A stretch of DNA of 64,000 bases from Takakia lepidozioides. Its lineage: Eukaryota; Plantae; Bryophyta. The stretch covers positions 67,704,001 through 67,768,000 of the forward strand of contig CM060731.1 in NCBI GenBank assembly GCA_030704615.1, given 5' to 3'. This document shows positions 7,018 through 51,102 of this stretch, piece after piece. The notes below the pieces were generated by a model. The model was not told the DNA's origin. It saw only the letters and a list, made by a program, of their open reading frames with translations, and searched no databases. Numbering within the stretch: position 1 is the first letter of the stretch; each line of letters starts with the position of its first letter. The translations under genes and the position numbers were made by a program.

Positions 7018-8028
7018 ATGGTTGATGACCAATGGACTGCACATGGGCCTATTTTGTTGGCACCCATATCTACAGCTTTGACAGTTTGCGCCAACGGGGT
7101 AGTACATGAGTTGAAACAAGTATCTACTCTCGTGGACCCATCGAAGGATTATTATAGCGAGAAACCCTTAAGTCATACTATAATCGAGGTAAGTCCTGGG
7201 GACTGCCCAGAGAGATTTTAGGGGTCTTGTTACATGTACAGTGGAGGTATCTTTAGAATGTTGTAACCTTCATTCAGTACATCTCAGCCGTAAGAACGGA
7301 GTAGAAATGTCACATTAAATAATGTTAAATTATTGCTCGTTCAAGTTAGAAGCTCTAGGACATGTGAAGTTATCAATTGGATAGAGCCTAGTCTATCGCA
7401 TTTATCTCACGATGTCTTTAATGTTTATGTGCAGACTCCTGGAAAGGCAAAAAGGATGACTGAATGGATTGAGATAGTGAGGGGTATGTTCCACTCCATG
7501 ACCGTAGCTCTTACGATAAGCGAAATGCAAACAACAACCTTCAATGCATGTATGCATCAAATATGTAATTCAATAATTACATGTACGTGCAACCCATGCT
7601 GTATCATAAGGGGAATTGGATGGCTCTGGAGGACCAGAGTTCCCCCGGTCTCTGCAATGGATTATTGATAACCAACTCCCGAACGGTGACTGGGGAGACC
7701 CCGACCACTTCTTGGGGTTTGATCGTGCCAGCAACACTCTTGCGTGTGTGATTGCCTTGAGAACCTGGGGAAGTACGGGTGCGAGTGTGGAGAGAGGTGA
7801 TAAGAACTCTTACAACCCTAAGATATTGTTTTCCAAGGTGCGTGTTTGGTCATGGCTGTTCGAGCGAGCGTTATTGAACATTAGGAGCATGGAACGCTTG
7901 CTCGACTTGATTGTTTGTATCACTTTTCAATCAACGCTTGAGTAGTACGAGTTCTTACATATTGATATAGAACTGATTATGCTCATCACTTTTTCTTGCA
8001 GTGGACTAGGTGGATCGCATCACTCACA
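7018..8028 (+). pseudogene. Diterpene synthase pseudogene, copy 2 (internally deleted, 3' truncated)
   Basis: N-terminal exons include DGSGGPEFPRSLQWIIDNQLPNGDWGD...DRASNTLACVIALRTW (QxxxGxWG motif). The sequence then jumps to an intron/exon (WTRWIASLT) paralogous to 940-1030 and is fused to transposon DNA at ~8029. Confidence 0.85.
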
Positions 8029-9164
8029 GGGTTGTTCCGACCTTATCATAGTGGGGAGTCGAAGGACCACAAGTTTTGGTTCTGCCCAGACGATATGGCA
8101 CGATGCATCAAGGGAACAGTTCGTCCTTCGGTGATAATGAAACCCCCTCCCCCTGCAATTTGGCCTGTGAAACTTGGGGACGTCGCTGTCAACAACCGAG
8201 ATAAGCATGCTGGAGGAAGGAGGGTTTTGTCTTGCACGATCCCGAGTGGTGCCCTTGTGCACTGTCGGCACAGATGTGCCACAAGCTCCGGCAATGCCTC
8301 CACCCGGTGCCGACTCCCACCCAACAAAAAGAGATGGAAAAACAGTGCGCCGTGTCGCTTCGGGTGCAGATCACGAATGCAAGATGGAATCGGCTAGAAT
8401 TTTGCAGGCTCGGGTGGCTCGTATCACCGAAGTCCCTGCCTCGGGGTATGGACGGATTTACACAGTGCTGTCTATTGGCTCAGTTCTTCATGGCAAAGAA
8501 TATCAGGTTACCGTGGGGAATTCCCTACTTGCACTTGTCCGGATTTTGTAACGATGCGTGAGGGCGCTCTCGGCATGAGAGGGAAGTGGGTCCCCTGCAA
8601 GCATCAATATTACATATACCTTGTAATTATGTGTTGCGACGGTAAGAGAGACCAATTCATTCACCAAGCCACACTAGGCTACGGAGAAGTCATCACCCTT
8701 CTGCAGCGGGACACCTCACGTAGGGCTCCGCCAAATTCTCTTTGAACACATACGAGCCATGCCCGCTTCCCACACTGGTTTCTAGGTTACCGTGTGAAGA
8801 CTTTGCATTTAGGACAAACACATACATTTCGTTCACGGAACCAGGGCAAATGCACATGCCATTCATTGTAAGCGTCTATCTATGAATTGAAATAAAGTGT
8901 GTCAATCATTCTGAGCTCAATTCTGCCATATTTTCATATTCCTCTTTTTGTGCAGGCATTGCAGACATGGTGCATGGTGGCCCCCTTTGTTTTGTCCACG
9001 GTAATAGGCCCTCTTCTTGCAATCCTCGCCTATAGGACCTGCTTCTCCAGCAGATTTGTGCCGCTCACGCTTCTTTGAAGCGTGAGCTCATCTCACGCTT
9101 TGCAGCTACAACGTGAACTCAGCTCCCAGGCTCACGGGGCTGGGCTCACGCCGTAGCTACGGTG
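8029..9164 (+). mobile_element. Right-end fragment of the ParB-MTase/SWIM transposon (second copy)
   Basis: Near-identical to 21580-22713, including the SWIM-finger coding part and the terminal ...GCTCACGCCGTAGCTACG(G/C)TG. Confidence 0.95.
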
Positions 9165-10969
9165 CACTGGATCCAGCAGGACTTGAGGGTGCGACCCCAT
9201 GAAAGCAGAGCAAATACGGTGTTAATGCCAGCAGCCCCTTACGTCTTGAGTGCAGAGGAGCATAAATCATTCTTGAAGACTCTGTCATCGTTGAAGGTGC
9301 CCACCGGGTATGCATCTACTTACAAAAAACACGTGGAGGATGGAAAGTTGACGTATTTGAAGAGTGATGATTATCACACACTAATGCAACAAATCCTTCC
9401 GTTGTGTCTACGTGGTTTGATGGAACCTGGTCCACGACGTGCCATAATGCGAGTGTCAAGAGTTTTCAGGAAACTTTGTTGCAAGGTTGTAGATCCTGCA
9501 GATATGCACTCTCTACGTGAAGAGGTTGTCATCACGTTGTGTCTCCTAGAAAAAGAGTTTCCACCTTTGTTCTTTGATGTCATGACTCACCTGCTGGTAC
9601 ACTTGGTTGACGAGTTGGCTATCCGTGGACCTGTAAACACGAGGTGGATGTATCCGGTGGAGAGGGCAATGAAATACCTCAAGGGATATGTTCGTAATAA
9701 GGCAAAACCTTAAGGCTCCATGGCAGAAGGGTATGTGTTGGATGAGGCACTAGGCAGATTTCCCCGCAACCAGGAGGCGAATTTGGGATGCCGATGAGGA
9801 CGAGGGAGTGGAGGGAGTGGTTGGGGAGGTCCTCAAAGGCGCTGGCAGAATTCGCAAATTGGATGTGGATTTGCGCAGTCTAATTCACTATTATGTCATT
9901 AACAACCACACGAGCATAGCTCCTTGGATTGAGTGAGTACTGTTCCTTAGCACTTTCTGGCAAGTTTGCATGTGTATGAATTTCATTTCATGGTGGACAG
10001 TGACAGTCAATTTACAATTCCTGTGCTCTCGATTGCAGGAAGTATGAAAAAGCCCAAGCAGATGTGGAATCAGGTCGGTCTGCTTTTTGGGGAGAGGTAC
10101 TTGGCAACGTGGAGCCTGGTCACAACATTGAGAACACAGAATATCCTGCGCATTTGCAATTACTGCCTCATTTTCAATCTTGGTTGGCTCAGGCTGTAGA
10201 AGATGATGTGACTGCAGGAATGAGGGATGATGAGGCGCTCTTGGAGGAAGTGATTGATCTGTCAAGACCCCCGTCTGTGAATGCAGTGTCATTCAAGGGA
10301 CTGAGTGCGTATGGGAACCACTACATGGCCAGCACAGTCCGATCTAACCAGTTGGTCACATATGACAGTGGGGTGAGTTCTATGTTTGAACATGAGGACT
10401 GTCAAGTGCGCTATGTGGGCATTGTGAAGGAAATATTACAAGTGGAGTATGACAAAACTAAAGTTGTCATGTTCATTTGTGGGTGGGTTTGTGCAAAAAC
10501 TGTGGGGAGGAATGCCTCCATGAAGAAGGATGAGTTTGGGTTTACCCTAGTTAATTTCAAACACATGTTACCGGCTAATGATCAACCCTGCTTGTTTCCA
10601 TCACAAGCTGAACAGGTTTTTTTTTCAGATTGTGTGCAAGAAAAAGGATGGAAGGTTGTGTTGGAGAAGAATCCACGATCGCTGAGAGTGGTGCATGATG
10701 TGTCAACATCACTATCGGACAATACAGATAGCAGTGGCATGTCAGCTCCCATTCGGCTCATTGATGATGTTCGAATTGGTGGGCAACCATGTACTCGCCC
10801 TCGCCCTGTCCTTGCAGTAGAGGTCACTGAAAAAGCCATGGAAGCTCTGTTCAAGACCCCCATTGGGAATACAAAGGTGCCTGCACAAGAAAATGATGAA
10901 GCAAACTGTGAGGAACATTCAACTTCAAGCAGTGAGGATGAAGACAATCTACCTGATATAGACTTGTAG
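9165..10969 (+). pseudogene. CACTA transposase C-terminal part (DUF4218/DUF4216-like regions)
   Basis: KVPTGYAS...LKSDDYHTLMQQILP...FFDVMTHLLVHLVDE...GPVNTRWMYPVER...KGYVRNKAKP*GSMAEGY, then DSGV...YVGIVKEI...DQPCLFPSQAEQVFF. An in-frame stop occurs at 9711-9713. Confidence 0.9.
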
Positions 10970-12472
10970 TTAGTTGGCGCCCTTGATGGTTGTGGTCTCC
11001 AAGCTCTCTCAGCTTTGCTTCATAGATGTTTCTCTGCATGCAAGTGAATCCTTATGTGAAGGTAAGTCCCTGTTGGCATAAGCTCGTGTTTAATTGTCGT
11101 CTTGGTATTTGGAGCCGCCAATTCGATTGGGGATATTTTACCTTCTGGCAGATAGTGGCCTGTCATACTGGGGGGGAAATTGAGCAGCAGCTGCTGGACT
11201 GTACAACACTTGAAACTGTACTTTTGACTCGGACCTATCTGGTTGGCCATTCAGTGACTTGCAGATATTATCCTTCTGTGCAATCTCGTTTCCCCATTTG
11301 CTATTGCTTTGTGGTTTTGCGATTAAAAATTCAATTAGGAGAATGGTTGCCAATTATTCCTCACACATGGTTATTCTCAGTGTTCAATGCTCCGTGATCT
11401 GGTCGGACTACTGACAATCATATTCTATCAGCAGTGTTTGTGCCATCTATATTTCGAGTTCATTTATTTTGTTCAATATACATGTACACAGTCCTGATAC
11501 ACTAGCAACAATAGAATTTGTTTTTCCTCCTTGACTTGGAGTGGCGTAGCTCGCTACACTCCCGCTTTTCAGCGTTTTGAGCGTGCGTAGAGAATGAATA
11601 CATATGCAATGGAATTCAACCGACATTAATTAATACCCTGTGAGAGAAATCAGAATGAAGATGGTAGACTTGCACTATGCTTGAATGGAGGGGAAAAACT
11701 CCACCAAGGAGAAAAATAAAGACTTTGGACTATGCGTCGAGTGATTGGCCAGCCAAAAAAGCCTTACCATGAGACTCAGATCGAAGAAGCAAAGTGGTCA
11801 GCCTCCCTCTATAAGTGGCATTTCCTCAGTAGCATAGACTCTGACGATTGGGCTTCCCAATAGGACAGGCGGCATCAAACAACGATAAATAGACGAGCTC
11901 TGCTGAGCCGTGAAATTTCCACGATTGATCTAACGTTTCATAGTGCAGATCAATTGGGGCAGTCGATGACATTGATCATCGACGGCTTAAAAAACCATTG
12001 TAATCTGATTATGTAAGCTAACGCTCTGTGGTATGCATACAAGAATATTCTTCCGCCTGCTCTAAATTCCACATTCCTTGGCAGCAGATTATGCCACATC
12101 GCTTCAATTATCCAATGTGTTTTTGTTTTTCTGCATTTATACTAAATAATATCTATCATTAATTGGGACACCAAATAAGAGTCACCGCGACATTATCCAT
12201 AGTCAACAACGTTTGACCACGCTCCAAAATCTCTAGAGTCAGCTTCGTTACCCTTTAAAGGCATACGTGTGACTTATAATCACTACTCTTCTTTGGTCAA
12301 ACCACGTTGACTTGAATTCCAAACTTTATGGAGTCGTTTAGTCATATACCCGACCTTTTTTAGGCATATCCATGACTTCTTTGTGCCTGTCCCACTTTGA
12401 GTCATGGTTTGAGTCATGAAAACCATGACTCTCCAAAAAAGAGAGTAAAAAAAACCATGATTTGGCGTAGTG
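9165..12472 (+). mobile_element. CACTA element B, right half
   Basis: TnpD-like transposase remnant, subterminal GAGTCATG/CATGACTC motifs, and a terminus ...TTTGGCGTAGTG followed by TSD TAG (12473-12475). Confidence 0.85.
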
Positions 12473-14526
12473 TAGTGGGGGAACAAAAGACAAGGGGGAG
12501 CTAGTTCAGATGAGCGTGCAGCTGGTGGAGGGCATTAGCGGGGCAACAAAAGACAAGGGAGAGGTAGTTCAGAAGAGCGTGGACGAGGTAAAGACCTCGG
12601 GTCCCCGCAACCTTGATTTGCCAAAGATGAAGGTGCCCCCCTTAGAGACCAATAAGGTCGGTGACCCCATTGGTGAGTATTGGGAGGCCATGAAAAAAGT
12701 AGCCTTTGACTTGGCGGCGAGGTGGTTCCCTTGGCATATTGATTGGCCACGCCAATCACATCGCCATAGGCGAGCATTCGTGCAAGCACTTGAGGGCACA
12801 TTTCCGGGTGAGTGGAATGAGGGGAAGCTCTTGGAGCTGGTGGGAAAGAACCTCAAGGACAAGAGGTACCGTGCGCGACAAACCATTCGCAAGGCACTCA
12901 AGGCGGGGGTCGAACCAACGACCATGCCACATGGAATAACCAAGGTAAGACGCACTTTCACTTGTCATTGGTGTCTTTGAATGCATGTTCATTGCGGTAT
13001 GGAGTTCATTAACATTTATAGCGTTTTTGTTGGGGCTGGACAGGAATCTTGGGAGGCTCTCATCGCAGGGGAGAGGGCAGAGCTGAAGGTGGAGATCTTC
13101 GCAAGGGGACATGCGGCAACTGCAGCCCGCCTCGAGAAGTGTGCGGAATCAACACACAAGTGGGGCCCCGGCGGAAGCAAGAGTTTTGTCACCCGATTCG
13201 TAAGTGTTCTTTCTCTTGTCATACCCATTCTTATTTTTTAGCTTCTCCCTTCCATTATGAATTCTGACCTGTCATTGCATTTGTATGTCATGTGCAGAAA
13301 AAGAAGTTTGAGAGGCCTCCCTCCACCATTGAGCACATCTTTTGCAAGACTCAGGGGTGGAAGGCCCTTGTAGCCTCAATGGCCAAGACGCCACAATTGA
13401 CGGAGGATAATGCATTTGTAGGGGTGGGGATGGGTAGTTCAGTGTCTCGGCCGGATGGGGGAGAGCCAGTAGTAGGGGGTGGTTCGAATGATGTAATCTC
13501 GGACTCGGCCTCATCATCCTCCAAATTGGAGGCCCAGCGTAGCTTGCATTCCTCGGACAAGTACACCTATGACTCAGGTGATGAGGAGTGAGGGATGGTT
13601 CCAAGTTAGAGACATGTAAAGGTAGTACTCGCTTTATGTATATATTTCTTCAGTTACCATTTCGATCCTCATTCTAACCTTAATGGACATGTGGATTCTA
13701 ATCTAACCTATAGATTAGAATGCATGCATTTCATGCAAGCACGAGGCACACCCCAACCCCCAAGAACCCCCCCCCCCCCCCCCCCCCCCCCCAAATGAAA
13801 AAAAACCCCAAAACCCCACCCAAATACCAGCTGGCTACCCTCCCACCCAGCGACGCCGGCGCGACGGCCGGGTGCGACCAGCGACTCTGCTGCGATCCCC
13901 GCCGTCGCAACATAACCACGCCAACGTGGAGCTAGCGACGCCACGAAGGGGCTGCGACTCCAGGGAGTCGCACACGAACGTGCCCTCCCATGGAGCTAGC
14001 GACGGCCCCCGGGGGCTGCGACGTCCCTACGATTCCCGGGCGTCGCTACCAAACCTCCTTACCCATGGGGGTCTAGCGACGCCCCCAAATGGCGACGACG
14101 TCATGGCGATTCCCGGGCGTTGCCCGGCTGCGACGTTTGGGCGACGCCAGCGTGTGGCTAATTCTGGGAAGGGGCGACGTCCTTGCGACTGCCCCATGAT
14201 GCAGGGGAAGGGATGGACCCCCCCTCCCTGCCCTTTGTTGCAACTCCTGAGAGTCGCCATATTGTGTCGCCCCGGAGGGGCAGCGTCTTTTCGCCGTCGC
14301 TGGTCGTGGCTAGGTGGACCCAAGGGATTAGCGATTCCCTTAGGTCGCTAATCTGCGACGTTCCGGGAGCGACGTGGTGGCGACTTCCCGACGTTGCAAT
14401 TTGTCCCCGGCGCGCCCCGGGCGCTGTAGTATATTTTCGTCGCTAGGCGCGACGTTTTGGAGGGCATCGCTAAACCCCCCCCCCACCCCCCCCCACCCCC
14501 CCCCCCCCCCCCCCAACGTAGTAGTG
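12473..14526 (+). mobile_element. CACTA element A, right half (spliced accessory ORF and right terminus)
   Basis: Coding exons at ~12476-12943, 13040-13199 and 13298-13591, GCGAC/GTCGC subterminal repeats at 13850-14470, and a terminus ...AACGTAGTAGTG followed by TSD TGC (14527-14529). Confidence 0.85.
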
Positions 14527-16138
14527 TGCCTATGAGGAGGCAAGCAGGCTGTAAGGCACAGCTCAGTTCCTCGGTCAGGAAACAAACTAAGGCAGGCGCA
14601 AGAGAAGATGGGCAGCGCTAAGGTAAGGGAGAGTACCAGACCAAGCTGCAGGATCCCAGACCAAAATGCATGCCAATACCAGGGGAATTTCAACCAACAT
14701 CAAACTGTAGAAGATCCCAAGTGTCAAGTAAAATCTAGAGGAACATAAGGATAATCCAACAAATGACACAAGGCATAGGGGTCTGAAACAAGTACAGTAG
14801 GTGAGGGAGATCGTTCAGCAGGGGAGACAAGATCACTTAAGGTAGTGTAGGGTGCATGGATTTTGGATTCGCCTCTAGTCAAAGCATCTGCATTAACATT
14901 GTTCTTCCCACGCTTGTATGAGATGGTGAAGTCATAGCCTTGCAGAATTAGAGCCCATCTAGCTAACCTGCCAGTGAGTTCATGAGGAGTTAGCAAGGCT
15001 TTTAAAGGGAGATGGTCAGTTTCAATGGTAAAATGACAGCCATGTAAATGGGGGGTGCTATTCCGTGAGCCTGGAGGCGTGAGCCTGTGAGCCCAGGAAA
15101 CCGTGAGCCCAGCACAGGCTCACGCCACGTCAGCATACATACAGGGCCTATTTCCGTGGGTGTCACCTATTTCCGCGGGTTGATCAACCATTTCCCGGGA
15201 ATGCAGAGTGGATATGTTACATCCATTGTATCCATTGCATCCATGCAGACGTTATCAACATACCAAGCCCTCACAAGTTTATGTGGGTACGTCGTGAGGA
15301 GGTGCACACTGACATGATCTAAAGCGGAACCCTGCGAAATCTTTTCTTACTCACCACCCTTGCGAACATGCCAGGTATGTGCGGGAGCATCATGGATGCT
15401 CATTAGATTTGAGAATGCGTCACAGCTCTTTGATGAGGTGGACTTCACCGTGATGGATTCACCAACCATTCTTCTAGCAAGAATGGTTTGGAGACCAACG
15501 ACCAAATGATGCGAGAATGCTGTACACGAACCAAAGTCGTTTGTTTGTTTTTGCAATGCACTCAAGTCTGTGAGGTCCAGAAAACACTAAATAGATTTAA
15601 GGAACAATCCGGGCAGTCCATGCAACCCCCATCTCCAACAATAGTTTGTTCCCATTAATGTGCATTCCACGCACACATTGCAAACTGGACAACAAGGACA
15701 CACAACCATCCCATTTCAAATTTGGCCCCGAATAAAACCAAAAGAAAACTTCATATCAAGTGTCACAGTCATCAGAATCAGTCTCGACCTCATGTGCTAT
15801 GTCATCCACAAAGATTCTGGCCCCAACACCACGTCTTCTACCATGGCCGTCGATGGGTGGACTCTGAGTGCCATGAACGGTCATGCTTGTTGCGAGTGTC
15901 TCCGCATAGACAGGTAGCACGCAAGACCGAGGAGGACTGGAAAGAAGTCCAAATAGGTGTGATAGCCCTGGAGGGCAAGTGGAAGCACGCGGACTCCTGC
16001 ACATGTCGACAAAAACCCATTCAGAACACAATATGCAATACACAAGTCCAACGAAGAGGATGTTTGCCGTGTGAACTTTGCCTCAAGAACAGTGATTCTC
16101 GATATTGAAACAACAATGCAAGCATCCACAGGTTGAAC

Positions 16139-19100
16139 TTACTCACAGGCAAAGTCGGAGTCCAGCTCTTTGTCGGAAGTCTCTTCTGTATCAATATCAG
16201 CGGGACGGGGCTTCGGAAGGACTTGAGAAGTGTGTCCACCCAAACCCATCAGGAGGTTCTTGTAAATCTCAGCATCCCCTTCAATCCCAAAGAGATGTCG
16301 GGCACTGGCCTTGCAAGCGTGGTACGAAGCACCTGCAGTGGAATAGAATGAAGGAAGCAGACATTGAAGACACATATGGAACGGTGGGAAGTCCTGAAAG
16401 TGCAAGCTCAATCAAACCTCATGAAATCCGAATGTTGAAGAGATGAACCTGTACCCATTGACAAATCCAGAACTCTGGCGTCTATGTAGGTGCAGCACTC
16501 CACAATCGTTTGAATGAAAGCCGAGCTCCTCTCCCTCGCCCCTCTCCAAGGAACCCCATTCCCCCTTCGCAAGCAGACGTTGCTGTCGACGTAGTTGTGG
16601 TGCATGTCATCCGTGGGAGGATCTGTCCTGTCGTCTATGAACTTGCCCCCATGAGTGATGGCAAACTCCGAAATGCCGGCCAGAGTCGTTGGTGGATGCA
16701 CTCGGACGAGACAAACAGCTTCAAACAAACGAGTCTGCGAACAACACATCCAGAAGGAACTAAGAAGCTTCAAAAATCAGGCCCCTACATATGAGTTTGA
16801 GCGACCTACACAACTCCATCCGAGAACCACCAAGAAGAGGAAGAAGAAGGCAAATTTACCATCTCTCCCGGACGATCCCCCTTCGTAAGGTACATGCTGT
16901 TCACACAATTCCATGTCTTCAGGACTCTCATGCCCGAGGCTTTCAAATAGCTGGCAAGTGCACGGCGACAGCGAACGTCGGCGGACTCTATGAGCACCAA
17001 AACACCTGCATCGGACAGGAAAAAATTGCAAAAGGAGAAAACCCACCGCCAGTAGCGCTCATCAAAAGCATTCCAACCCGGACAAGCACCCAATGGAGGG
17101 ACATCCGGGACTGCCAACCCATCAGGGATGTCCAAGATTATGAGTTCGGCTGCATATTGCTTCTCCTTCCCGTTCACCCAGGATTTGGTCATTTTAGCCT
17201 ACAAACAAAATTACAATGGAATACTCAAGAGGATTGAAACGATCCATGCCCACTGTAGAGAAGAAGCAAAAGAGAACACGCACCGTGCCGATGAACTCTA
17301 CAATCCTCTCCCACACTGGTGATGGCTCGCCCTTGTAATCAGATTTCTTGGACTCCATCATGGCAAGGAATCCGACGTTGGCCATCTCCAACCTGGTAGG
17401 GCAAATGACCCTCGTGGGATGTTCCACTGCATGGTACGGGTCCTTGGGATCAACCACCCCCTTGTTCTTTCTCACGGATCCCCTACCATGCGGTGGAGTC
17501 TGCTGGACATGCACCACTGGGGCAATATCTGCAACACTTCCCTGCCCTTGTGCCACCTTCCCTCTACCCCTTCCTTTCCCCACAACACCAGCAACATCTT
17601 TTCCCTTTGCCTTTCTACCTCTACCCGGGGTATCCTGAGCGGGAGGCTCATTCTCTGCAAGAGTCCTCAAATTTTGTTCATGAATGTCGAGGTCGGCTGC
17701 TGCGGCAATGGCTGCAATTCGTTCATTCTCTCTCCTCAAAGACACCTCCGGAGCTGGGGTCTCAGAAGGAGGGCAATCCAAATACCAACCACAAGAAGAA
17801 AGATAGTCTGGGCCCCAGTCATGCAAGATCCCAGTAGTAAACATGGTCGGATTGCCAGCAGGGACAAGCCAGAGGTCCACGAAATCTGGATGTTTGTCCA
17901 AGCAATTCTCTTCCATGAGAACAAACTTTATGTACCTGCAGGAACAGAGACAGCCTCATTATGCAATGCAATTATTGTCTCTCAGCTTTTCCATCACACC
18001 ATGAAGACCCCCTTAAACTGTATGCGTCACAGTACATTGCAACCACAGCACACTAAGTAGCCTGAACGGCCCAGGGTGTGCACCTGTAAAGGCATCGTTT
18101 CCAAGCTTCCTCTCCTTTTTCTTGCTGGTCAAGGTCATGTGTTCGACTGATGCCACCCTCCTTGCTGAACTCTCTAAAGAAACAAGAGTGCCACACTGTG
18201 GCTCTCCATTTCCTCATGTATGCTTCGAAGGAGACTTTCGGTGCTGTCATAGTGATGCCATAGTCAGCCAGCTGAGTATGCAGAATCGACCGTGCCCTTT
18301 CTTCCAACTGCAAAACAATTCAAATGCAAGAATGAACCCAAAAAAAATCATAGCGAATGTGAGAGGCAATGGAAAGAGAAGGACAGGAAAAGAGAAAAGA
18401 AAGTGACACAGGAAAGGACATCACACCTGGCTCCAGTAAGTGGCCTTGTGAAGCCATGTGTCCAGCACATTGTCACTGACAGGAATGACACGCTGGGTCT
18501 TCTTCTCTTTCTCCGGCCTGGGGAACATGTGGGTATCCCTAACTATGGGATCGGAGTTCCATATCTGTAGCCACTTCACCTTCTGTTCTGAAGACACAAC
18601 GGCGGTAGACAACCTGTGTAACTTCTCCCGGACCATCTCTGGCTTGCCTGGCTTGTTATAATGGTTTTTTTATCTCCAGGAGAAACTGCGATCCGAATGA
18701 TGGGTCGGCAATTCTCAACTGCTTCACAAAAGCACTCATTATAGTCCTTCTTGTAGCGGTCATCTCTTTTTGGATGTGTCTCTCAACCCCCTTTGCTGTC
18801 CTTCTCTCCTCAGGGGTTGACCTGTAGTATTCCAGTTTGCCACGCTCCCCTGCATCTGCAATTGGTTGCTGCAAGGGAATGCACGAGAGTTGCATCAACC
18901 CAAGGGCAAGGGAAACAAACAGAAACAAACATGTGGAAGCAGGAATATGGAAAGGGCAGATGAAGGAAGATGTATCTCACCGTGTACATGTACTCCATGA
19001 AAGCCTCACGTGTCAACGAGTACCACGTTTCCGATGTCTTGGAGCTTTCGCACTTCTTGTACGTCTCTGCTGAAAGGATGGTCTTGAAGTTGGTCAAGGG

Positions 19101-19838
19101 CATCTGCCCGATCCTTTGTATCCTATACAGTGTGTGAACCAGACTCGTTTTCACATGCGATGTCTCCGTTCCTCTGCAGAATGATATCTGAAAGTCAGAA
19201 TGAAATTCAAGGACTTTAATCAAAGAACCACGGAACTACAAGTGGAACATGTAGAATGAGAAACCAACCTGTTCACATCATTCATTGCCGTCAGAAGACC
19301 CATCATGTTCCCCTCACAATCCAGCACCATCGATCGAACAGAGTAATGCCACTCTTCCTCTTGTGAGTGCAAGCAACCGGTGGTTCCCATCCCAAACGTG
19401 AAACATCTTCCCCGAGAATGCCTGGGTGGAAGGTTTCCTGGAGAGAAGAAGTTTGAAGGATTCGTTCACCTGTCTCCAAATAGGATCCCAGGAGTCCACG
19501 ATTGACTCATCCACAAGGAGCTCATTGCCTGTGGAATCCTTTGTACAAACGTAAAACACTGCGGATCCATCCAAATACCCATGAACAAACTCGGCCTCTA
19601 GCTTGAGAATGTCCTTGATGAGGGGTGGTCGAACGACGGGCATGGAAACCATCCTACACAAGGGAATCTTCAACCTCCCACCCGGGGCAAGCATACTTTG
19701 CACCACAAGCTGAGAGTTTACCTTCTGACCCCCCAGCATCTCCGCGGCTTTGCTTTCATAGAACTCATTGTCAACATCAACAATGATCTCCCTCCCCAGC
19801 CCCGAAGGGATCTCCTCCGCCACACTTTGCATCTTCTC
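16139..19838 (-). pseudogene. ParB/Srx-like domain fused to a beta-class N4/N6 DNA methyltransferase fold (8 exons, two frame disruptions)
   Basis: Phase-compatible GT-AG exons: 19838-19269, 19173-18981, 18868-18427, 18307-18084, 17935-17284, 17198-16860, 16734-16449 and 16332-16139. Motifs are FHVWDGNHRL (ParB/Srx), ELIILDIPDG (motif IV-like) and RERSSAFIQTIVECCT..DARVLDLSMGTG|ASYHACKASARHLFGIEGDAEIY (motifs X-I-II). Frameshifts lie at ~19365 and ~18665. Confidence 0.8.
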
Positions 19839-19927
19839 CTGCAGGGTTGTCCATTCAAATTGATATAAGAGTGAGGCATGGGACGATGGTGTTTGAGCAT
19901 GGCAGACAGGCCATGTGTGGAAAAAAA

Positions 19928-20857
19928 GGTGAGCTCAAACAGTGTGCATTGACGCACACTGTTTGAGCTGCAAGGTAAGTGTTCATTGAACCTCAAAGAC
20001 ATGCCACGTAAGTGTTCATTGAACCTCAAAGAGAAGCCCTTAGTGGCCGATTTTCAGATGAAAAAAAATAAAAAATTGAGCTCAAACAGTGTGCGTTGAC
20101 GCACACTGTTTGAGCTGCAAGGTAAGTGTTCAGTGAACCTCAGAGACATGCCACGTAAGTGTTCATTGAAACTCAGAGACATGCCAGGTAAGTGTCATTG
20201 AACCTCAAAGAGAAGCCCTTAGTGGCCGATTTTCAGATGACAAAGGCAATGACAAGGTGAGCTCAAACAGTGTGCGTTGACGCACATTGTTTGAGCTACC
20301 AGGTAAGTGTTCATTGAACCTTAGAGACATGCCCTGTATTGCCGAATTTCACACGGGAAAACAGTGACAAGGTGTGCTCAAACAGTGTGCGCCAACGCAC
20401 ACTGTTTGAGCTGCCAGGTAAGTGATGATTGATCCTCAAATACAAACCCTATGTGGCCGATTTTCAGATGACAAAGGCAATGACAAGGTGAGCTCAAACA
20501 GTGTGCGTTGACGCACATTGTTTGAGCTGCCAGGTAAGTGTTCATTGAACCTCAGAGACATGCCCTGTATTGCCGAATTTCACAGGGAAAAAACAGTGAC
20601 AAGGTGTGCTCAAACAGTGTGCGCCAACGCACACTGTTTGAGCTGCCAGATAAGTGTTCATCGATCCTCAGAGACATGCCCTGTATTGCCGAATTTCACA
20701 GGGAAAAAACAGTGACAAGGTGTGCTCAAACAGTGTGCGCCAATGCACACTGTTTGAGCTGCCAGGTAAGTGATGATTGATCCTCAAATACAAACCCTAT
20801 GTTGCCAATTTTCAGATGACAAAGGCAATAACAAGGTGAGCTCAAACAGTGAGCTCT
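19928..20857. repeat. Tandem array of long palindromes (period ~116 bp in the regular part)
   Basis: (A)GCTCAAACAGTGTGCG-ttga/ccaa-CGCACACTGTTTGAGC(T) at ~19932, 20079, 20260, 20376, 20491, 20608 and 20725, with a collapsed copy at ~20840. Confidence 0.95.
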
Positions 20858-20882
20858 ATTTCCTTTCCTTCCTCACATTTCC

Positions 20883-22294
20883 ATGCAATGCCTCATGCAA
20901 GACATGTCCTTGGAGGACTTGGCCGACATGCCATCCTGTAATTTGGCGGAGACTGTTCATAACGCCTGGATGCAACAATCTACCAAAGCAGGTCGTGACT
21001 TGTATGTGGCTACTGCTGATGACATGGTGCGGGCACTTACACAACAAACCAGGTACCGCAATTTTATGATGGGACGGGGTGGAGGCAAGGGCCCCGGTAC
21101 GACTTTGTTGATGCTAAGGGCTGTGAGTAGGTCCGGAGACCCATCGAAGATGGCCAGAGCTCTGAACAGGTGCACTGAAGGCTCCCCTTTGCAATCCAGG
21201 CTCCCTCATTTGGAAGGCGAGGAAAGATTTGAATCATGCAACAGGAAATTGAACACTCTTTCAGGGTCAGATGGAGATTCCCATCGCCCAGACAAGGTCG
21301 ATTCTCTGCGCCAAAGGTGTCTCCAGTGCAGACTAAGTCGTGTGCCGGCCCCTTCCCAGGTGGGTCCTCCTCCTGTGGAGCAGGTGCAGAACATGCAAGC
21401 ACAGCAAGGAGGTGGTGGCCATGGTGCAGGAATCTGATTGCATTGATAGTGAGTGGCATATAGAACGCACCCCACCAGGATCTAGAGTTGCTTGCATGGC
21501 AATTCGGACCCCCTCTTTCAAGAAATGCAAATAAAAAATATGCAAAGGCTCCAGGGGGACTCCAGCTCCAACATTCATAGGGTTGTTCCGACCTTATCAT
21601 AGTGGGGAGTCAAAGGACCACAAGTTCTGGTTCTGCCCAGACGATATGGCATGATGCGTCAAGGGAACAGTTCGTCCTTCGGTGATAATGAAACCCCCTC
21701 CCCCTGCAATTTGGCCTGTGAAACTTGGGACGTCGCTGTCAACAACCGAGATAAGCATGCTCGAGAAGGGAGGGTTTTGTCTTGCACGATCCCGAGTGGT
21801 GCCCTTGTGCACTGTCGGCACAGATGTGCCACAAGCTCCGCAATGCCTCCACCCGGTGCCGACTCCCACCCAACAAAAAGAGATGGAAAAACAGTGCGCC
21901 GTGTCGCTTCGGGTGCAGATCACGAATGCAAGATGGAATCGGCTAGAATTTTGCAGGCACGGGTGGCTCGTATCACCGAAGTCCCTGCCCCGGGGTATGG
22001 ACGGATTTACACAGTGCTGTCTATTGGCTCAGTTCTTCATGGCAAAGAATATCAGGTTACCGTGGGGAATTCCCTACTTGCACTTGTCCGGATTTTGTAA
22101 CGATGCGTGAGGGCGCTCTCGGCATGAGAGGGAAGTGGGTCCCCTGCAAGCATCAATATTACATATACCTTGTAATTATGTGTTGCGACGGTAAGAGAGA
22201 CCAATTCATTCACCAAGCCACACTAGGCTACGGAGAAGTCATCACCCTTCTGCAGCGGGACACCTCACGTAGGGCTCCCCCAAATTCTCTTTGA
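20883..22294 (+). pseudogene. Putative transposase C-terminal half with SWIM zinc finger
   Basis: PSCNLAETVHNAW resembles the motif around the terminal Glu of Mutator-type DDE transposases. C-terminal YQVTV..FPTCTCPDF...WVPCKHQYY is a SWIM CxC-xn-CxH finger. Stops and frameshifts are present and the N-terminal half is missing. Confidence 0.7.
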
Positions 22295-23716
22295 ACACAT
22301 ACGAGCCATGCCCGCTTCCCACGCTAGTTTCCAGGTTACCGTGTGAAGACTTTGCATTTAGGACAAACACATACATTTCGTTCACGGAACCAGGGCAAAT
22401 GCACATGCCATTCATTGTAAGCGTCTATCTGTGAATTGAAATAAAGTGTGTCAATCATTCTGAGCTCAATTCTGCCATATTTTCATATTCCTCTTTTTGT
22501 GCAGGCATTGCAGACATGGTGCATGGTGGCCCCCTTTGTTTTGTCCACGGTAATAGGCCCTCTTCTTGCAATCCTCGCCTATAGGACCTGCTTCTCCAAC
22601 AGATTTGTGCCGCTCACGCTTCTTTGAAGCGTGAGCTCAGCTCACGCTTTGCAGCTACAACGTGAGCTCAGCTCCCAGGCTCACGGGGCTGGGCTCACGC
22701 CGTAGCTACGCTGCATGTAAATACTGCCTAAAATATTTGACGCCAAAGATAACGGCAAGGCATTCCTTGTCGGTGATGGAGTAATTGCGTTCATGTTTAT
22801 CAAGGCGGCGAGAGGCGTAGGCGATGCTCTTGACCATCTTGAATCTGGCTTAACACAGCAGAGATAGCGAGATCACTGGCATCAGTTTGCAAGAGAAATG
22901 GCAAGGTAAAATCAAGATAGGCAAGCACAGGAGCAGAGGTTAGTGAAATTTTGCGCTTCTGAAATGCTGACGTTTCTGCAGTACCCTAGACAAAACGAGC
23001 ATCCTTGGATAACAAGCGAGTGAGGGGAGCAGCTAACTTGGCAAACTGAAAAATGAAGCGAAGATAGTAAGAACCCAAGCCTAAGAAGGCTTTAACGCAT
23101 ATTTTATCCCCGAGGGGCTGGATAGTTCCACACAGCTTGGATCTTTGCAGGGTCATGACTGATGTCAGCAGCATAAAGTAGATGGCCCAAGAAATGGAGT
23201 TGTTCCATACAGAAATCACACTTCTTGGCTTTAACCTTAAGCCCAGCTGCACGAAGTCTGCACACAACCCGCTGTAAGTTCAGATGGGCATCAAACGTTG
23301 TAGAGTAAATGTTGATGTCATCGATGTAAACCAAGGCACATTCCCAACGAAGGTTTCCTAAAACGATATCCATTAGGCGCTGAAATGTGGCAGTGGCGTT
23401 GCAAAGGCCAAAAGGCATGGTTTCAAATTGAAAGAGGCCCATCCTGCAGGTGAAGGCAGTTTTCTCTTTAGCAGCAACAGTTAAAGGAACTTGCCAAAAG
23501 CTAGAGGCTAAATCTAAGGAAGAGAAGATAGTGGCCCCATTAAGTTGATCGAGCGTTTCATTGATGCGTGGCAAGGGTAAACATCCCTTGATGGCATTTA
23601 AATGCCGAAAATCAACGCAAAAACGGGTGGAGCCATCATTCTTACCCACCAAGACAATGGGACTGGCCCAAGGGGATATGGAGGGGGTGATTACACCAGC
23701 ATCAAGCATCTTGGTA

Positions 23717-24660
23717 GGGTGAAAGCATGCTAATGTGTACCACTGACACTCCTGAAAAAGACTAAATTTTGACTGCTGGCGCGTTACACCACGGCGCGTG
23801 GACATGACATGTTGCGATGAAAATGTGATGAAATTTACAGATGATAGTGGGCACCTCGACCCCATCCATCGGATGCTTGTACACCCTCTTGTACACCTCC
23901 AATTTTGCTCGTACACCGCTAATTTTGAGTATACGATACTAACTCGACTTCCGTTTACCACCATTTGTTTTCCCCTCATCGCATCCAAGCCGGGTTTGGT
24001 GTGTTTGATGCCTACTTCAGTGCTACAGATGCTCGTATAATTTTTAGGAGTTTATTTGATATATTTTTAATATTAAAACAATTTGCAATGAATGATACAC
24101 TATTTGTAAGAACTCATTTTGGCCTCAAATTCAAAAATTGGAGGACCTTGTAGCCATTTCAAGGACATGGCCTTCTTCCTTTTTAGTAGCTAAACACTTT
24201 TGGTGAAAGAACTATATTCAAATTTTGAGGTTTAGTAGTACCAAAGTTTGGTGCCCCTAAGTTATGCATACCGCGTAGTAGAAAATTCCTATGATAATGG
24301 GTTTTTTTTATTTTGCAGGTCTACTATCTTTTTTGCATTCTTCCATACCTTACATAAACACATGAGAATCCCTGATAGGACCTTCACATGTTATGGGTGT
24401 GAAAATGAGTCCTAAGGGACTACAACATTTTGAGACATTTGAACCTTGTGCTATTCAAGACTCATTTAGGACCCCTTAAACTTGTCAAATCACAAAACAA
24501 TTTATATGGGCACGACAAAAACTTCAAGGGCTTTCTAATGATATAATGTGTCTATGGTTTCATACTGAACTCAATATCCTAAATTTGGATCGATTGCGCC
24601 ATATGTGCTGGAAAACAGTTTGTGACATCCTTTTTGGATCCTATTAGTGTGCTTTGACCC
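23717..24660. mobile_element. Non-autonomous TIR element with 4-bp TSD, inserted in gypsy pol
   Basis: TIRs GGGTGAAAGCATGCTAAT and ATTAGTGTGCTTTGACCC (15/18 match), with GGTA duplicated at 23713-23716 and 24661-24664. Excision restores IQDELTKMLDAG. Confidence 0.85.
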
Positions 24661-25051
24661 GGTAAGCTCATCCTGAATGACCTTGCGTTCACGGACACTC
24701 TCCCTATAGGCATGTTGTTTGATAGGCTTACCATCCGTGATGATGTCATGATCCAGAAGGGTGGTGCGGCCCAAGTCATGAAGCCCTTGACTAAAGATGT
24801 CGAGATTGTCACGGAGAAACTGGTGCAGGCGATTAATCTACTGGGGAGCAAGGTGATCACCCACCTTGATATTCTTTAATACCTGTTGGAAATGTTGCTC
24901 TGCCTCAGGAGTAAGCGGGCCTTTGTCAGTGGAACCAGAGTGAGAGGCAAAGGACTGGAGTTGGTCCACAAGGGAGTCCACCAGCCCAATATCATGAAGA
25001 CTGAGACCTTTCTGAACAGAGGTCAGCTCAGACAAAGGAGTAGCAGTGAGT

Positions 25052-25357
25052 CTAGTAAGGTATACTGATGCTGATGCGTTCAGGATTAGCAAGAAGTAAA
25101 CTGACCTCACCTTTGAAACCTCGGTCTAAAACCCCAGAAGCAATCAGACAGTGCTTTTGGAGGGTAAGTTTCTTCCAGTCCTCAATCTCAAAGAAATGAC
25201 TTGAAGGGCAAGGAAAAGCTAGACCTGTAGGTACTATGCGCTGAGAAAAAGCAGGGATGATGAAGTCAACAGGAGAACGTAGCAAAAGAGAGTTATTTGC
25301 CACGGGCAGTGGAGGTCCAGACTTCTTACCTGGTGGAGGGAAATGCCATTGATACAA
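25052..25357 (-). pseudogene. dUTPase-like domain in gypsy pol, between protease and RT
   Basis: LRSPVDFIIPAFSQRIVPTGLAF...ASGVLDRGFKGEVSLLLAN resembles trimeric dUTPase (..LV.TGL...GVID.DYRGEI.V.L.N). Confidence 0.7.
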
Positions 25358-26137
25358 GGTATCACCAAGTGGGTGGAACTAGCTGAACCTGGCCCAATTA
25401 TAATACAAACCCACCTGCTCCTTCATAGCTTGAAGCTTGAGACGAGAATAGTTGGCCATAGAGGTCCCAGCAGCAATGGTAACATGGTTTAGATTCACCT
25501 TGTAGGGTTGCCCTTCACCATTGTGAAGACACATAATGTTATTCATGATGTCTATGTTGGCCTCTGCACCCTTCATCCAATCCAGACCCAGCAAAACTTG
25601 CTCACCCATGGTGACAATGCAGGTTAGCAAGACAGTTTTCCCACTAATGCGGATAGGTAAGGTGACTAACCCAATAGGTTCATAAGCCGTGCCATCAGCT
25701 ATGGTAACCACAAGACCATGAGCAGAGCCAATCTTTAATCCAAGAATGCGAACTGTACTAAGTGGAATGGTAGACATGGTACAACCCGTATCAATAACAC
25801 ATGGAAAGGAAAGGTGGCCTACATGGCATTATGTCATCAACGGGTGGATACGGTCCCGACTGACACGTTTATAGGCTTCACAATGCATGAGTTTGAAATC
25901 ACGAGAAAGAACAGCACTTACCAGCGTGTTGGGGTTCTTACCATCGTCATCTGGCACCCTCATAGACGACCTGGTTCGTTTAAAGTACCCTGCTATTTCT
26001 TATCCCTTTATAACTATTCAATCAGGGCAGGCAAGTCAGATTGGTAAGGGCACCACCTGGTGTAATGCTTGATGGACTTGCAAATCATGCAAGCCACCAC
26101 TGAGGTCCGGGTGTCATGACGCATGCCAGCATAGGCT

Positions 26138-31695: not shown

Positions 31696-34600
31696 TTACT
31701 TGTAAAGGGAGATGATTTCATCTTTGTATTGGGAAGCCACCACATCTCGTCTGACTTTCATTGTAGGGGTCAATAATCCATTCTCAATCTGCAAGTGAAA
31801 CGTAATGAAAAAGTCAGATATAATGCATTGTCCAATAGAGAAGCTAACCATGCTACACAAAATCCCCTAGGATCTACACAGACTCCCTCATTTGGGTGTG
31901 TTATGCTCCATTCCACTGGTCTTCTTCAGGTCAGACGTTTGTCTGAAACTTCTGCTTCCTTCCTTCTTCCTTCCTAGTATTGGTCCATTTGGGCATTTTA
32001 AGGAGGGAGAGGGGTAAAGGGAGTATCTCCGGCCGTGCAGTGTAGAATGGCTAGCAAAAGTTCAACACAGTGCAAGACATCTGATCTGACATTGGCAAAA
32101 AGCTAAGTGCCTGTGATGTTAAAAAACCACAAAGGGCTGACAAACTTCTAGAAAAGAGCACGTGGACGTACCGTAAAGGGTTCAAAGAGGATTGCAAAAT
32201 TTGGTCCAATCTGGTGTGAGCAAGTTGAACCACTGCATCCACATACAGACATCGACCACTTTCTTCAGCAGATATGAACCTCACATAACTCTATGAAAAA
32301 CATCGATTTAACTGCTCCCACAAAAGCAGGCTTCCCACTGACATCAAGTCAATATTGTGGGGCTGTTAGACTTTGATTCTCATTGGCTTCTAGCCTAATT
32401 TTGGTGAAGAAACAGCAGCATTTAGAGAGGCTCAAGCTGACCACCTCAGCACATTATGTATACCTTTCTGAGGAGGGCAGGTGAACTTACTAGGTCTTAA
32501 GGTCCTTGTGAATGCAAGCCTTTAGCTCTTTGAGGGATGGTTCTGAATTACCGCCCTTTGCTTCTATCACCCTAGCAGCAGCTGCATATAGCTCGTCTTT
32601 GTTCACCACAATCAAGGCTCCAATACGCCGTTGATCCTGCAATTTTCCCAGGACATTCAACACCTCTGAACCTGTGTGTACAAAAATCAACTGTAGAAGA
32701 GGGGTGAACTTGGTAACTGTATTTTTCTCCAATTCCACCTTGATTGGTGCTGTTGTCCCGAACCTTCTCTTTTCCAGTTTCTTTCATTTAACATCCTCTT
32801 GAGATGTAATTTGTTTAGCCATCTTCTCTACTTAAGGCCTATCTCTATTTCCTGGCCCAGCTTGGCTTTTGCCTGCTTTGGTGTTCACAGAGGCACCAAG
32901 GTTATTGAGTGGTTTGAGGTTTTGATGCCACTGTAATCCTTCTCACACTGAAACTGCCTTTAACTTCAGCCCAGCACAGTTCTTCCTTCGACTATATTCG
33001 TCCTTCAATGCTGAGAGGACTGGAATCTAAGAGAAAAGCTGAAGAAATGAAATGAAATGAGATGAAATGGTACTTTATAATGTCCGCGGAAAGCTCAAAA
33101 GAAAAACTATATAACATCCATGGTCCTCTAAGGGCCCATGGGTCCAAGTAGAACAACAAGAAACAGCTCACCTGAGAAAGAAAGCAAGAGAACTAGAAAC
33201 ATTTTAAAGTCCACAGGGGCCTTAAGGGCCAATGGAATAAACTAGAACAACAAAAACCACTTCCTGAAACACCAAACATTGCCCAAAAACGAAGAGAAGT
33301 GAAATGGAAAGATAGAGACTGTATAACAAGAACTTAAACTGAAGAAAGAGAGAAACAAACAACAAACCTGACCGACGACAACAATTTGGTTAATCAGATT
33401 GCTTTCCATGACCGCTTCCTCAATCTCTGTTGGCTCTACGTTCTCACCTGCACAAAGCCTCTGACTCAATATCCCCAATCCCTCTTGAAGCAAAAAATGA
33501 GTGTCACTCTTGCCCAGAAAACTCCTACAGCGGATGTTGGGAAACATGTCCAGGTAGCTTATTATGCTCCATCACAGCCCAGCAACCAGAAGATAGATTG
33601 TACTCATAAGACGTTGTTTGCCGTAGCCTTGTGGCCATTGACCCCGCGCCCAGTTTGAGCGGGAACAAAAGGGACAGAACCTACCTCTGTCAGGGGCTGA
33701 CGTTGGTAGTAAGACTTACCTCCATATAAAGAATTCATCCGGGTTTTCCAGATATCCTCTAGAAATCCCGTCACACAAGCATCAATCTGCTGTGTGTGAT
33801 TTGCCCAAAAACTAGGCCTCAGGAGGGCCTGGGCTTTTGGCTCAGCCTCGAGACTTTCAAAGTTGGTAAACAGGGGTACAGGCACAATACCCTTAATAGA
33901 TTTGAAGAGAGCGTCTCTTTGGTGAGAGAACCCTGGACAGTGTATCAGAAAATGAATACTGTCTTCAGATTGCCCACACAACGGGCAATTGCACTCTCCC
34001 TTTCCTCTCTGCTTCTGTTTGCTGTTCAAAGGTAGGCTTCCTGCCCTGAGTTTAAATTTCAGTCTAGTGCCGAGAGTGGGTAGACCCTTGAGGTCATCCA
34101 AGATGTCCTCCCCCATGTCACAGACTGGAAACAAGTTCAGGGAAGTTTTCTGCCTAACTTCATTTTCATCAGACAATCTCATGGCAACAGACATGGCTGA
34201 GGACACTACAGCCTCTACGTCAGATTTATCCAGCAGGGTCAAGATTTGCGGATCCAGGTCCAGGTCCTTGAGGATCTCTTCTACTCTCTTCTGCCAGGAC
34301 TTAGCCTGTTTGACAGGGCGGTCCTGTTTCCAAGATATAGAGTCGATTAATTTAGGATATCTGGTGTTGGGCATATGTTGCAGCTGACCCCACCATCTGA
34401 CCTTGAATTCATCTCGTCGGGAGCTTAAGGACGGAATGCCAAACTCACCCCGAGCAGCCACATTGGCTGTTTTGGAGCATGCTGACATACACTCCTTAAG
34501 CACCCCACTTGAATGGATTCTAGAGACTTAGCCTGGTTGGAGTTATCAACCCATATAGCAGATCCGTACTCCAAGGCAGTCTAATAACGCGACAAAGCAT

Positions 34601-40600: not shown

Positions 40601-41590
40601 CTCCATTGCGCGTCTCCTGCCTCACTACCAGCACCCTCTAGGAGCGAGGGTGCACACTTCCTCTTTCCTTCAACATACTGTTGAGTCTGCATGATTCAAG
40701 CCTTTCTTCAGCTGTAATTCATGACAGAAGATCTCTGCAGCCACTTCGAGGTTTTCTGTTGGGTGGAGTACACCCCTAAATGCAGTACATCATTGCACAT
40801 GTAACCAGGACAACCAGCACTCAGTAGCATGAATAGGATAACAAGCTCCAAAATAAGTCAGTTTCAAAGTTTGGATTTCCTGGTGCAGTCGCATTTTGTC
40901 TCTCCATAGGTAAAAATGCAAAGGTAGAGCGCCACAAATTGAGTGCTAACTAGTGCATGCAAATAACAACCTCCTTTAACATTCTCTACATTTAATGGTC
41001 TTCTTCTCTGGAAATGATGTCTACTGGTGAGAACAAGAAAACTTTGTGAAGCCATGGTTGAATGCTCACCAGATGTATCCCACAATCTACTAAGTATCAG
41101 ACCTTTGAACCATTCCCTTTCAAATTCAAACTCCAGATATCATACGAAAGTTGTCAATGAGTTGATCACCTACAACCAACCTCTACAAGGAATTCCAGTG
41201 TGCAGATGCTGCTGGTACCGACAAACAATAGACCCGAATTTCCAAGTTCAGTGACTAGACTCCTTTATCCAAATTATCAGATTCCACCTTCACTTGCATA
41301 CCAGGAAATTATCAGGAACTCAACTACCCAGTGCTTCCATTTGGTTCAAACCTTGCGAGAAAACCCAAACCGACGATTCAAAGGCTCCCAGCACATTTTA
41401 CCTCGAGCGCACACCGCATAGTGCCTAGCTGCAGAGGCCACCAGCACTGTCGAGACAATTTCTGTGACCCAAACTCCCACTCACTACTTCTACGACTACC
41501 CAATGAAACCCACGTACTCCCTCGCCCAGAAATCCCCGCACGCTGTACACATGCCTGCCATCGTACAGGATAGCAGAGCTCCATCGCCAT
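31696..41590 (-). CDS. Plastid acyl-activating enzyme / long-chain fatty acid-ACP ligase (AAE15/AAE16-like), multi-exon, apparently intact
   Basis: Transit-peptide-like first exon (41590-41402), then [94 protein letters not shown] and [15 protein letters not shown]...LYK*. All splice junctions I checked are GT-AG and in phase; the start codon is uncertain. Confidence 0.92.
33595..35530 (-). mobile_element. 5'-truncated RTE/RTEX-like LINE in an AAE intron
   Basis: [45 protein letters not shown] and a C-terminal CPLC..ED..HFL..C. It sits between AAE exons ...VLSTG and GENVEP. Confidence 0.9.
39754..39800 (+). mobile_element. Short 3'-end remnant of the same LINE family in another AAE intron, opposite orientation
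   Basis: GGTCAATGGCCACAAGGCTATGGCAAACAACGTCTTATGAGTACA matches the reverse complement of ~33599-33643. Confidence 0.8.
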
Positions 41591-50775: not shown

Positions 50776-51102
50776 TATGTAAAGCCTGCTGGGGCCACAA
50801 GAAACTGCGAGCTCCTGCGAGTGATGAGCTCAGGGAGAACAAAAATGAAGCCTAGCCAAAACAAGCTACACACCCGGCACACAAGGGATGAAAAAACCTA
50901 GGGAAGAAAACCTCACCCTGCAAGCTGGGTGGAGGACAAAACATCCCATAGGAAAAACCCCGAGTGTTACAAACGGTGTAGAAAACTAGCATGAAATTCA
51001 AAACACTACTCTAAAGAAGAGGATGCCATGTTGTGAGTGCGAGTTGCCCGAGCTGTGGGAGTGAAGATCACCTGACGGTTCTCAACATTCAAACAGATGA
51101 GA

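Follow-up and report, generated by a model that had tools for sequence, protein, structure and literature searches.

What does a DNA amino-methyltransferase-like domain do in a moss genome when the tetrapeptide DIPD stands where known enzymes of this class carry DPPY or SPPY? The question arises in a 64,000-nucleotide stretch of the Takakia lepidozioides genome (contig CM060731.1, positions 67,704,001 to 67,768,000; hereafter the window, to which all coordinates refer). A preliminary description made from the letters alone had proposed a beta-class methyltransferase domain that becomes visible there once three exons are spliced. These exons and their GT-AG junctions are genuine in the window sequence (17198–16860, 16734–16449 and 16332–16139, minus strand). 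The peptides quoted for them (ELIILDIPDG, RERSSAFIQTIVECCT, DARVLDLSMGTG/AS and ARHLFGIEGDAEIY) all occur there unchanged, with the DIPD codons at 17132–17121 on the minus strand. The three exons, numbered 6 to 8 below, are bounded by AG acceptors and GT donors in phases 0, 0 and 1, and their predicted splicing yields a single open frame that ends with the stop codon TAA at 16141–16139.

Over its whole length the spliced product can be aligned with a protein of the moss Ceratodon purpureus (KAG0605740.1, here P0073; 307 aa, 27% identity, E 7e-29). Because this alignment crosses the junctions without gaps, the three-exon product stands above chance. In the genomic relatives L081 and L025, motif I is interrupted by a phase-1 intron at the same position as in the window, and the predicted intron 16735–16859 holds all four of the indels (4/4) listed among other copies of the element. 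Contigs from two sets of four sequencing runs, none of them recorded as RNA, contained no spliced joint, which speaks neither for nor against the predicted splicing.

While the three exons are real, five exons upstream of them, two frameshifts and an enclosing transposon had been missed. By its sequence, the methylase-like domain is the C-terminal part of a broken, predicted eight-exon gene of about 975 codons, with the following parts:

19269–19838, minus strand: coding exon 1, the first recognisable one; predicted ParB/Srx-fold domain with a DGNHR motif; homologues P0001–P0005
18981–19173, minus strand: coding exon 2; a helical stretch that follows the ParB fold; homologues P0003 and P0004 have it directly joined to their ParB part, and related loci conserve it
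18427–18868, minus strand: coding exon 3; matches the Ceratodon protein P0081 (E 1e-14); carries the second frameshift
18084–18307, minus strand: coding exon 4; domain of no known family, conserved in related loci, with splice sites
17284–17935, minus strand: coding exon 5; conserved start, low-complexity linker and first helix of the predicted methylase fold
16860–17198, minus strand: coding exon 6; motif IV (DIPD), the near-invariant PxWN and the strands after it; 75 homologues
16449–16734, minus strand: coding exon 7; PWRGARER, equivalent to motif X, and DLSMGTG as motif I
16139–16332, minus strand: coding exon 8; motif II (GIEGD), acidic tail and stop

The first frameshift, in exon 1, results from the absence near 19367 of 26 bp that are present in a contig of another copy. 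The second, in exon 3, is one extra base in a run of A at 18665 and is absent from contigs of sequencing runs X6 and X7; neither break was found in the contigs of other copies. From the second break to the stop the frame is open for 644 codons. As it reads, the frameshifted window copy cannot make the full protein. An AG acceptor at 19840–19839, just ahead of the first Met, points to one more exon upstream, which has probably been lost from the window copy.

We next consider the fold. Both the beta-class amino-methyltransferase fold and its motif order are supported, by profile alignment and by the model of a homologue. In the spliced product motif IV lies N-terminal to motifs X, I and II, which is the beta-class order. 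A profile of 54 sequences matches M1.HpyAVI (E 5e-5) and CcrM (E 0.036), and in the CcrM alignment the family's D-I-P-E falls directly over DPPY. An AlphaFold2 model of the P0073 domain (pLDDT 80, pTM 0.79) shows the permuted Rossmann methylase fold. It matches CcrM with a Foldseek E of 1e-12 and a VIA Z of 17.9 (rmsd 3.6 Å over 213 residues), followed by M.BceJIV (Z 17.2), M.MboII (16.8), N4CMT (16.4) and M.PvuII (16.3). The MT-A70 group reaches Z 9–12 and unrelated folds 6 or less. The top 11 structural rows are all beta-class enzymes, the best of them 6mA writers; the viral fold matches include a phage ParB fusion (E 3e-9). Language-model neighbours are N6_N4_Mtase clusters (0.94). Pfam gives no match above threshold: the best PF01555 score, for P0073, is 15.7 bits, below the gathering threshold of 26.7, single window exons gave no Pfam match, and phmmer with P0073 gave 0 matches among PDB sequences. 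The methylase fold of the window gene is thus a predicted one, modelled on P0073.

DIPD is not a peculiarity of the window copy. In 75 representative homologues from a full HMMER search with exon 6 (E<=0.001), motif IV is altered across the family, with the consensus D-[IV]-P-[ED], and the canonical form (D/N/S)PP(Y/F/W) occurs in none of the 74 that align there, nor in the window. Position 1 is D in 60, E in 10 and Q in 3 of the 75; position 2 is mainly I, V, Y or L; position 3 is P in 63; position 4 is E in 42, D in 24, K in 3, S in 3 and N in 2, with an aromatic residue in 0 of the 74 aligned. DIPD itself is found in 7 homologues and DIPE in 12. On a quick tree of 101 columns, in which many forks are open, position 1 changes in 7 steps, and 8 of the 10 members of one clade (SH-aLRT 97) read EYPD. 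Decayed copies may be among the homologues, and they would make the motif look more relaxed than it is. One homologue has the string SPPF elsewhere, in the loop after motif IV.

The SAM-binding loop, which the preliminary description called recognisable, is so in part. Ten sequences span motif I; all ten keep the Asp and the last Gly, whereas the Phe of the FxGxG consensus is absent from all ten and the first Gly, present in the window, is kept in four. The motif II acid, the SAM ribose residue, is Glu in all five sequences that include exon 8, and where CcrM has its motif X His the family has another residue. Three Trp positions are conserved (in PxWN, W-x-x-x-N and PWRG), and PxWN is near-invariant (W in 73 and N in 74 of the 75), which argues that the fold has been kept despite deep divergence. 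The DIPD codons are untouched by the 40 variants listed among the copies of the element, besides which there are 122 further variants. Copy differences are synonymous in 11 of 26 cases, a weak excess (p 0.02 if the neutral expectation is set to 0.23, p 0.13 if it is set to 0.30).

In DNA amino-methylases the motif IV Tyr is reported to stack with the flipped base (PMC10406627, PMC3814359). The sequence of the family accordingly leans towards a pseudo-enzyme, although it is also compatible with catalysis. Of the two options originally offered, an active 4mC or 6mA writer or a pseudo-enzyme that reads DNA, the second is somewhat better supported, and nothing points specifically to 4mC.

What does the N-terminal part add? 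The model of homologue P0003 matches PadC (Z 7.6), KorB (7.2), and SerK and Srx (both 6.5). ParB/Srx members fill its top 8 VIA rows, with modest and consistent Z of 5.3–7.6, and an N-terminal ParB/Srx fold is therefore predicted. The part that follows the ParB fold has no assigned helix-turn-helix, in a model whose residues beyond about 245 are of low confidence. A ParB exon followed by methylase exons recurs in 27 of 80 related loci, many of which are too short or redundant, and in 23 at E<1e-3. L081 shows the same order with long open frames. Other searches for the fusion returned little. We found no single database protein with both domains (P0081 is without the ParB part), and word-index searches for longer proteins, one with exon 6 and one with the methylase alignment (the latter over 866–2,470 aa), gave nothing, which is weak evidence. 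The ParB profile gave one spurious match, to ribosomal eL24; two scans of viral contigs gave no relatives of the ParB exon, and an atlas search with that exon gave leads under 0.9 only. L081 comes from a cyanobacterial bin and is the sole contig from prokaryote genomes; we considered it as a bacterial donor and rejected it, since GT-AG introns interrupt it at matching positions, and we read it as co-assembled plant DNA.

The gene lies inside a DNA transposon, whose parts are as follows:

15050–22714: whole element; 7,665 bp Mutator-like DNA transposon, an internal-deletion derivative with degenerate termini
20853–22320, plus strand: transposase 3′ remnant; C-terminal SWIM-like CxC...CxH; frameshifted at several points and without the 5′ half, to which the catalytic core belongs
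19923–20851: tandem array; 116-bp unit with a 36–38-bp spaced palindrome of 15–16-bp arms
8018–9166: an incomplete second copy of the end that lies on the transposase side, with 98% identity across 1,149 bp

At the one insertion examined, the element is flanked by an 8-bp target duplication, ATTTACAT (22722–22715 and 15049–15042), and its flanks rejoin into a gypsy RNase H frame. The duplication would be 9 bp if the G at 22714 were counted as target; we favour 8 bp because this G is shared by the copy at 8018–9166 and by contigs of runs X10 and X11. Contigs of other copies end at 22712–22714 and at 15050. The motif GTGAGC/GCTCAC occurs 6 and 5 times in the terminal 165 and 151 bp, compared to 5 times in the inner 7,351 bp. 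Run X1 alone yielded 2,943 contigs on 1.4 kb of the gene, a number consistent with many diverged copies.

The transposase remnant stands head to head with the ParB-methylase gene, with the palindrome array between them. It is 31–58% identical to divergently oriented pieces in 6 of the 80 related loci. In these six the transposase is likewise head to head and lies 5.7–7.1 kb from the ParB exon, compared to about 1.2 kb in the window, and the upstream transposase pieces of the relatives have no match in the window. The shorter gap and the unmatched pieces together indicate that the window element is an internal-deletion copy. Its SWIM-like motif is seen by eye (Pfam SWIM, E 0.054 only; the catalytic core is deleted in the window), and 8 transposase fragments from relatives gave no Pfam MULE match. 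The likeliest superfamily by sequence is nonetheless Mutator, an assignment that Pfam does not confirm and beside which KDZ/Zisupton is possible. Mutator-like elements are reported to make target duplications of 8–11 bp (PMC6446971), a range that includes the 8 bp seen here. We rejected Sola, CACTA and host-gene readings because of the 8-bp duplication and the SWIM-like motif.

Could the protein bind its own element? The array between the two genes has 5 clear and 2 weaker copies of its palindrome; we regard it as a candidate self-binding site, and it likely lies in an upstream intron. We examined the 26 of the 80 related loci chosen for having enough upstream DNA. Seven of them contain at least 3 copies of one family-specific palindrome within 2.2 kb upstream, compared to none of the 26 gene bodies and at most 2 copies in shuffles; the other 19 lack a clear palindrome repeat. 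The palindromes differ between the window array and the seven relatives. The CpG observed/expected ratio is 0.55 in the element and 0.47 in the array, with neighbouring elements at 0.33–0.81, and two palindrome arms carry CG-to-TG/CA changes. CpG is thus no higher than in the neighbours, and the sequence bears no trace of an escape from 5mC.

Where does such a gene belong among described systems? The preliminary description had pointed to the 4mC writers N4CMT of bdelloid rotifers and MpDN4MT1 of Marchantia, which are not the nearest frame. Both are reported as SPPY/TSPPY enzymes with shown 4mC activity (PMC10406627, bioRxiv 10.1101/2021.02.12.428880). The window family does not carry this eukaryotic 4mC-writer motif, and its gene is transposon cargo fused to ParB. 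N4CMT shares a eukaryotic beta-class fold with the P0073 model (Z 16.4) and is structurally no closer to it than the bacterial 6mA enzymes. The likeness to the PF01555 enzymes CcrM, M.BceJIV, M.MboII, M.PvuII and M1.HpyAVI is one of fold and motif order. The family differs from them by an identity of 9–19%, the replacement of DPPY/SPPY, the loss of the motif I Phe and motif X His, its introns and its sub-threshold Pfam score.

A closer parallel in layout, as described in print, is the accessory gene of the Ectocarpus element Sola1-1_Ec32, which encodes a 1,104-aa protein with a ParB-like part and a predicted N4C/N6A methylase and is proposed to bind and modify its own element (PMC12477816). 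As in the window, ParB and methylase share one gene (1,104 aa compared to about 975 codons), which is carried by a DNA transposon and runs against the direction of the transposase. The host there is a brown alga and the element a Sola-1 with a 4-bp duplication and 282-bp TIRs, whereas ours is a land plant with a Mutator-like element and an 8-bp duplication. Green algal examples are attributed by the same paper to Iyer et al. 2011. In the Plavaka elements of Bostrychia (PAG2/PAG3), a ParB-homologous protein adjoins inverted-repeat tandem arrays, and a methylase-bearing accessory gene lies in one cassette with the ParB homologue; this cassette is described as moving between transposon superfamilies (bioRxiv 10.1101/2025.02.11.637652). 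By that account, and unlike the gene studied here, two separate genes are involved, one that joins ParB to a 2OG oxygenase and one that joins the methylase, a PF01555 match, to SET. ParB-N6/N4-methylase fusions are reported to be common in phages (bioRxiv 10.1101/2025.10.10.680097). Finally, VANDAL elements with their VANC genes are, according to published descriptions, also Mutator-like with degenerate ends, an accessory gene and family-specific internal tandem repeats (PMC5735166, PMC6446971). Pfam found no family in the window accessory gene and thus gives no sign of a relation to VANC. Hypomethylation is reported as established for VANC; for the window family it would be a prediction.

Taken together, the reading we prefer, at about an even chance, is that the gene encodes an accessory protein with a ParB/Srx and a beta-class methylase fold that binds the element's own palindromes and counters silencing without methylating. 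By such a mechanism, intact copies would make the protein, which would act in trans on all family members. It would dock as a dimer on the spaced palindrome, and the nucleotide-binding ParB fold could stabilise or spread the complex. The methylase fold would keep part of the SAM pocket and a DNA-binding or base-flipping surface, with methyl transfer lost, and occupancy may hold open the promoter region from which both genes diverge, in the manner of VANC on VANDAL elements. Binding to self is suggested by the recurrent ParB-methylase gene order together with the family-specific palindromes. It has a precedent in the palindrome arrays that adjoin ParB accessory genes in Bostrychia, and the reported targets of VANC are variable tandem repeats (PMC5735166); inactive methylase folds are known in METTL14 and in DIRS1 elements. 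The argument for a lost transfer is the absence, in all 74 aligned homologues, of the aromatic residue with which known enzymes stack the base, along with the repeated changes of D to E or Q, the loss of the motif I Phe and, in six of ten sequences, of the first Gly, and the replaced motif X His. Several observations weigh against the preferred reading. The first Asp and the Pro of motif IV, the motif II acid, and the Asp and last Gly of motif I are largely kept, as catalysis would need; the CpG excess is missing; 19 of the 26 loci are without a clear palindrome repeat; and the ParB fold has no assigned helix-turn-helix in the model.

The same residues feed the main alternative, less likely in our view, in which the protein is an active amino-methyltransferase with a rebuilt site by which the element marks itself with 6mA or 4mC. 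The first Asp and the carbonyl of residue 2 would activate the amine, a conserved Trp would replace the Tyr, and ParB would target the palindromes. D-x-P is indeed kept in most homologues, and in CcrM the amine is described as bonding to two groups, the side chain of the Asp and the backbone carbonyl of residue 2 (PMC10406627). Active KsgA and ErmC' are reported with L, I or V at position 2, and RlmJ stacks its base with a Trp located elsewhere instead of with Tyr (PMC3814359), an analogy by which the stacking Tyr may be replaceable. With three conserved Trp available, the acid of motif II in five of five sequences, 6mA writers as the best structural matches of the P0073 model and a modifying function already proposed for the Ectocarpus gene, such an enzyme is conceivable. 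However, an acidic residue takes the place of the aromatic one, position 1 has turned repeatedly into E or Q, and motifs I and X have lost their Phe and His; moreover, the PxWN Trp aligns to the WD that follows motif IV in CcrM, a region that likely contacts the cofactor and not the target base. A fuller version of this alternative seems to us doubtful: a phage-derived ParB-methylase, of a family widespread in seed-free plants, would write 6mA, 4mC or a SAM-derived group other than methyl on the palindromes of its element, a self-marking against silencing by a new catalytic variant (D-x-P-E/D plus Trp). Alternatively, the protein may aid transposition instead of countering silencing, as a scaffold or transcriptional regulator on palindromes and subterminal motifs, with the methylase fold a mere dimerisation or DNA-binding module. 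Such a protein would make up for the degenerate termini, which are poorly matched and have short repeated motifs; the two genes share a divergent upstream region in the window and in 6 of the 80 loci, and beta-class folds are reported to be dimers (PMC10406627). ParB fusions are described, nevertheless, on the unrelated superfamilies Sola, Plavaka, Zisupton and Mutator with varied chromatin-type effectors, and an epigenetic role therefore fits better than a transposase-specific one; we consider the aid to transposition unlikely. That the methylase gene is functionless captured cargo decaying within the element is very improbable. The two frameshifts of the window copy, the heavy decay of many related loci and the weakness of the synonymous excess would suit it, but near-invariant residues and conserved introns persist across homologues that are only 24–42% identical, L081 has long open frames and Ceratodon has annotated models.

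ParB-methylase accessory genes in algal transposons are already in print. What is new is the land-plant Mutator-like family and the alteration of the active site throughout it; full-text searches of the openly readable literature gave no account of this family or of the D-x-P-E/D motif. Thereby a predicted class of genes hitherto described from algae is now extended to land plants, among them the model moss Ceratodon purpureus, and its proteins are paired with candidate target sites. This pairing opens direct tests of binding, catalysis and anti-silencing. If the methylase is dead, a transposon would have turned a bacterial writer into a reader or shield at the level of chromatin. If it is active, the chemistry of amino-methylases would be wider than assumed, and the family would be a source of plant 4mC or 6mA that Pfam searches have overlooked.

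The probable Mutator-like element (15050-22714) interrupts a copy of a Ty3/gypsy retrotransposon, with the break point inside RNase H; the interrupted retrotransposon carries frameshifts of its own. The surrounding features of the window are as follows.

9117-11400 (+): CACTA-type transposase region, first of two
13800-15041 and 22723-26000 (-): the two parts of the interrupted Ty3/gypsy retrotransposon, with protease, RT and RNase H
33600-35330 (-), 44700-45500 (+) and 51100-54400 (-): remnants of LINE-type RT and zf-RVT, plus a second gypsy integrase region
about 36000-43000 (-): exons, such as 39928-40080, from a host gene for an AMP-binding (acyl-activating) enzyme
47950-49490: AT-rich tandem array, units of about 79 bp, at least 17 copies
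54300-57500 (-): CACTA-type transposase region, second of two

Between them, the two CACTA-type regions show the domains DUF4218, DUF4216 and Transposase_21, and the first is adjoined by the partial second copy of the element at 15050-22714. Each unit of the tandem array is centred on a palindromic CTTAGG...CCTAAG motif, and a single related motif is found at position 24391.

Outside the window, the related locus L081 (CADCWO010000058.1, 552-4158) holds an apparently intact ParB-methylase gene with introns, whose motif IV reads DVPE. This contig is assigned to a cyanobacterial bin and is likely plant contamination. At two decayed relatives, the loci L020 and L021, the equivalent of exon 5 lies in inverted orientation (11842-12048).

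Among the homologous proteins, P0021, P0023, P0036, P0040, P0053, P0062, P0070 and P0071 form a subclade with EYPD as motif IV, in which Tyr occupies position 2 of the motif and not position 4. The subclade may have solved catalysis in a way of its own, or its lineage may be dead.
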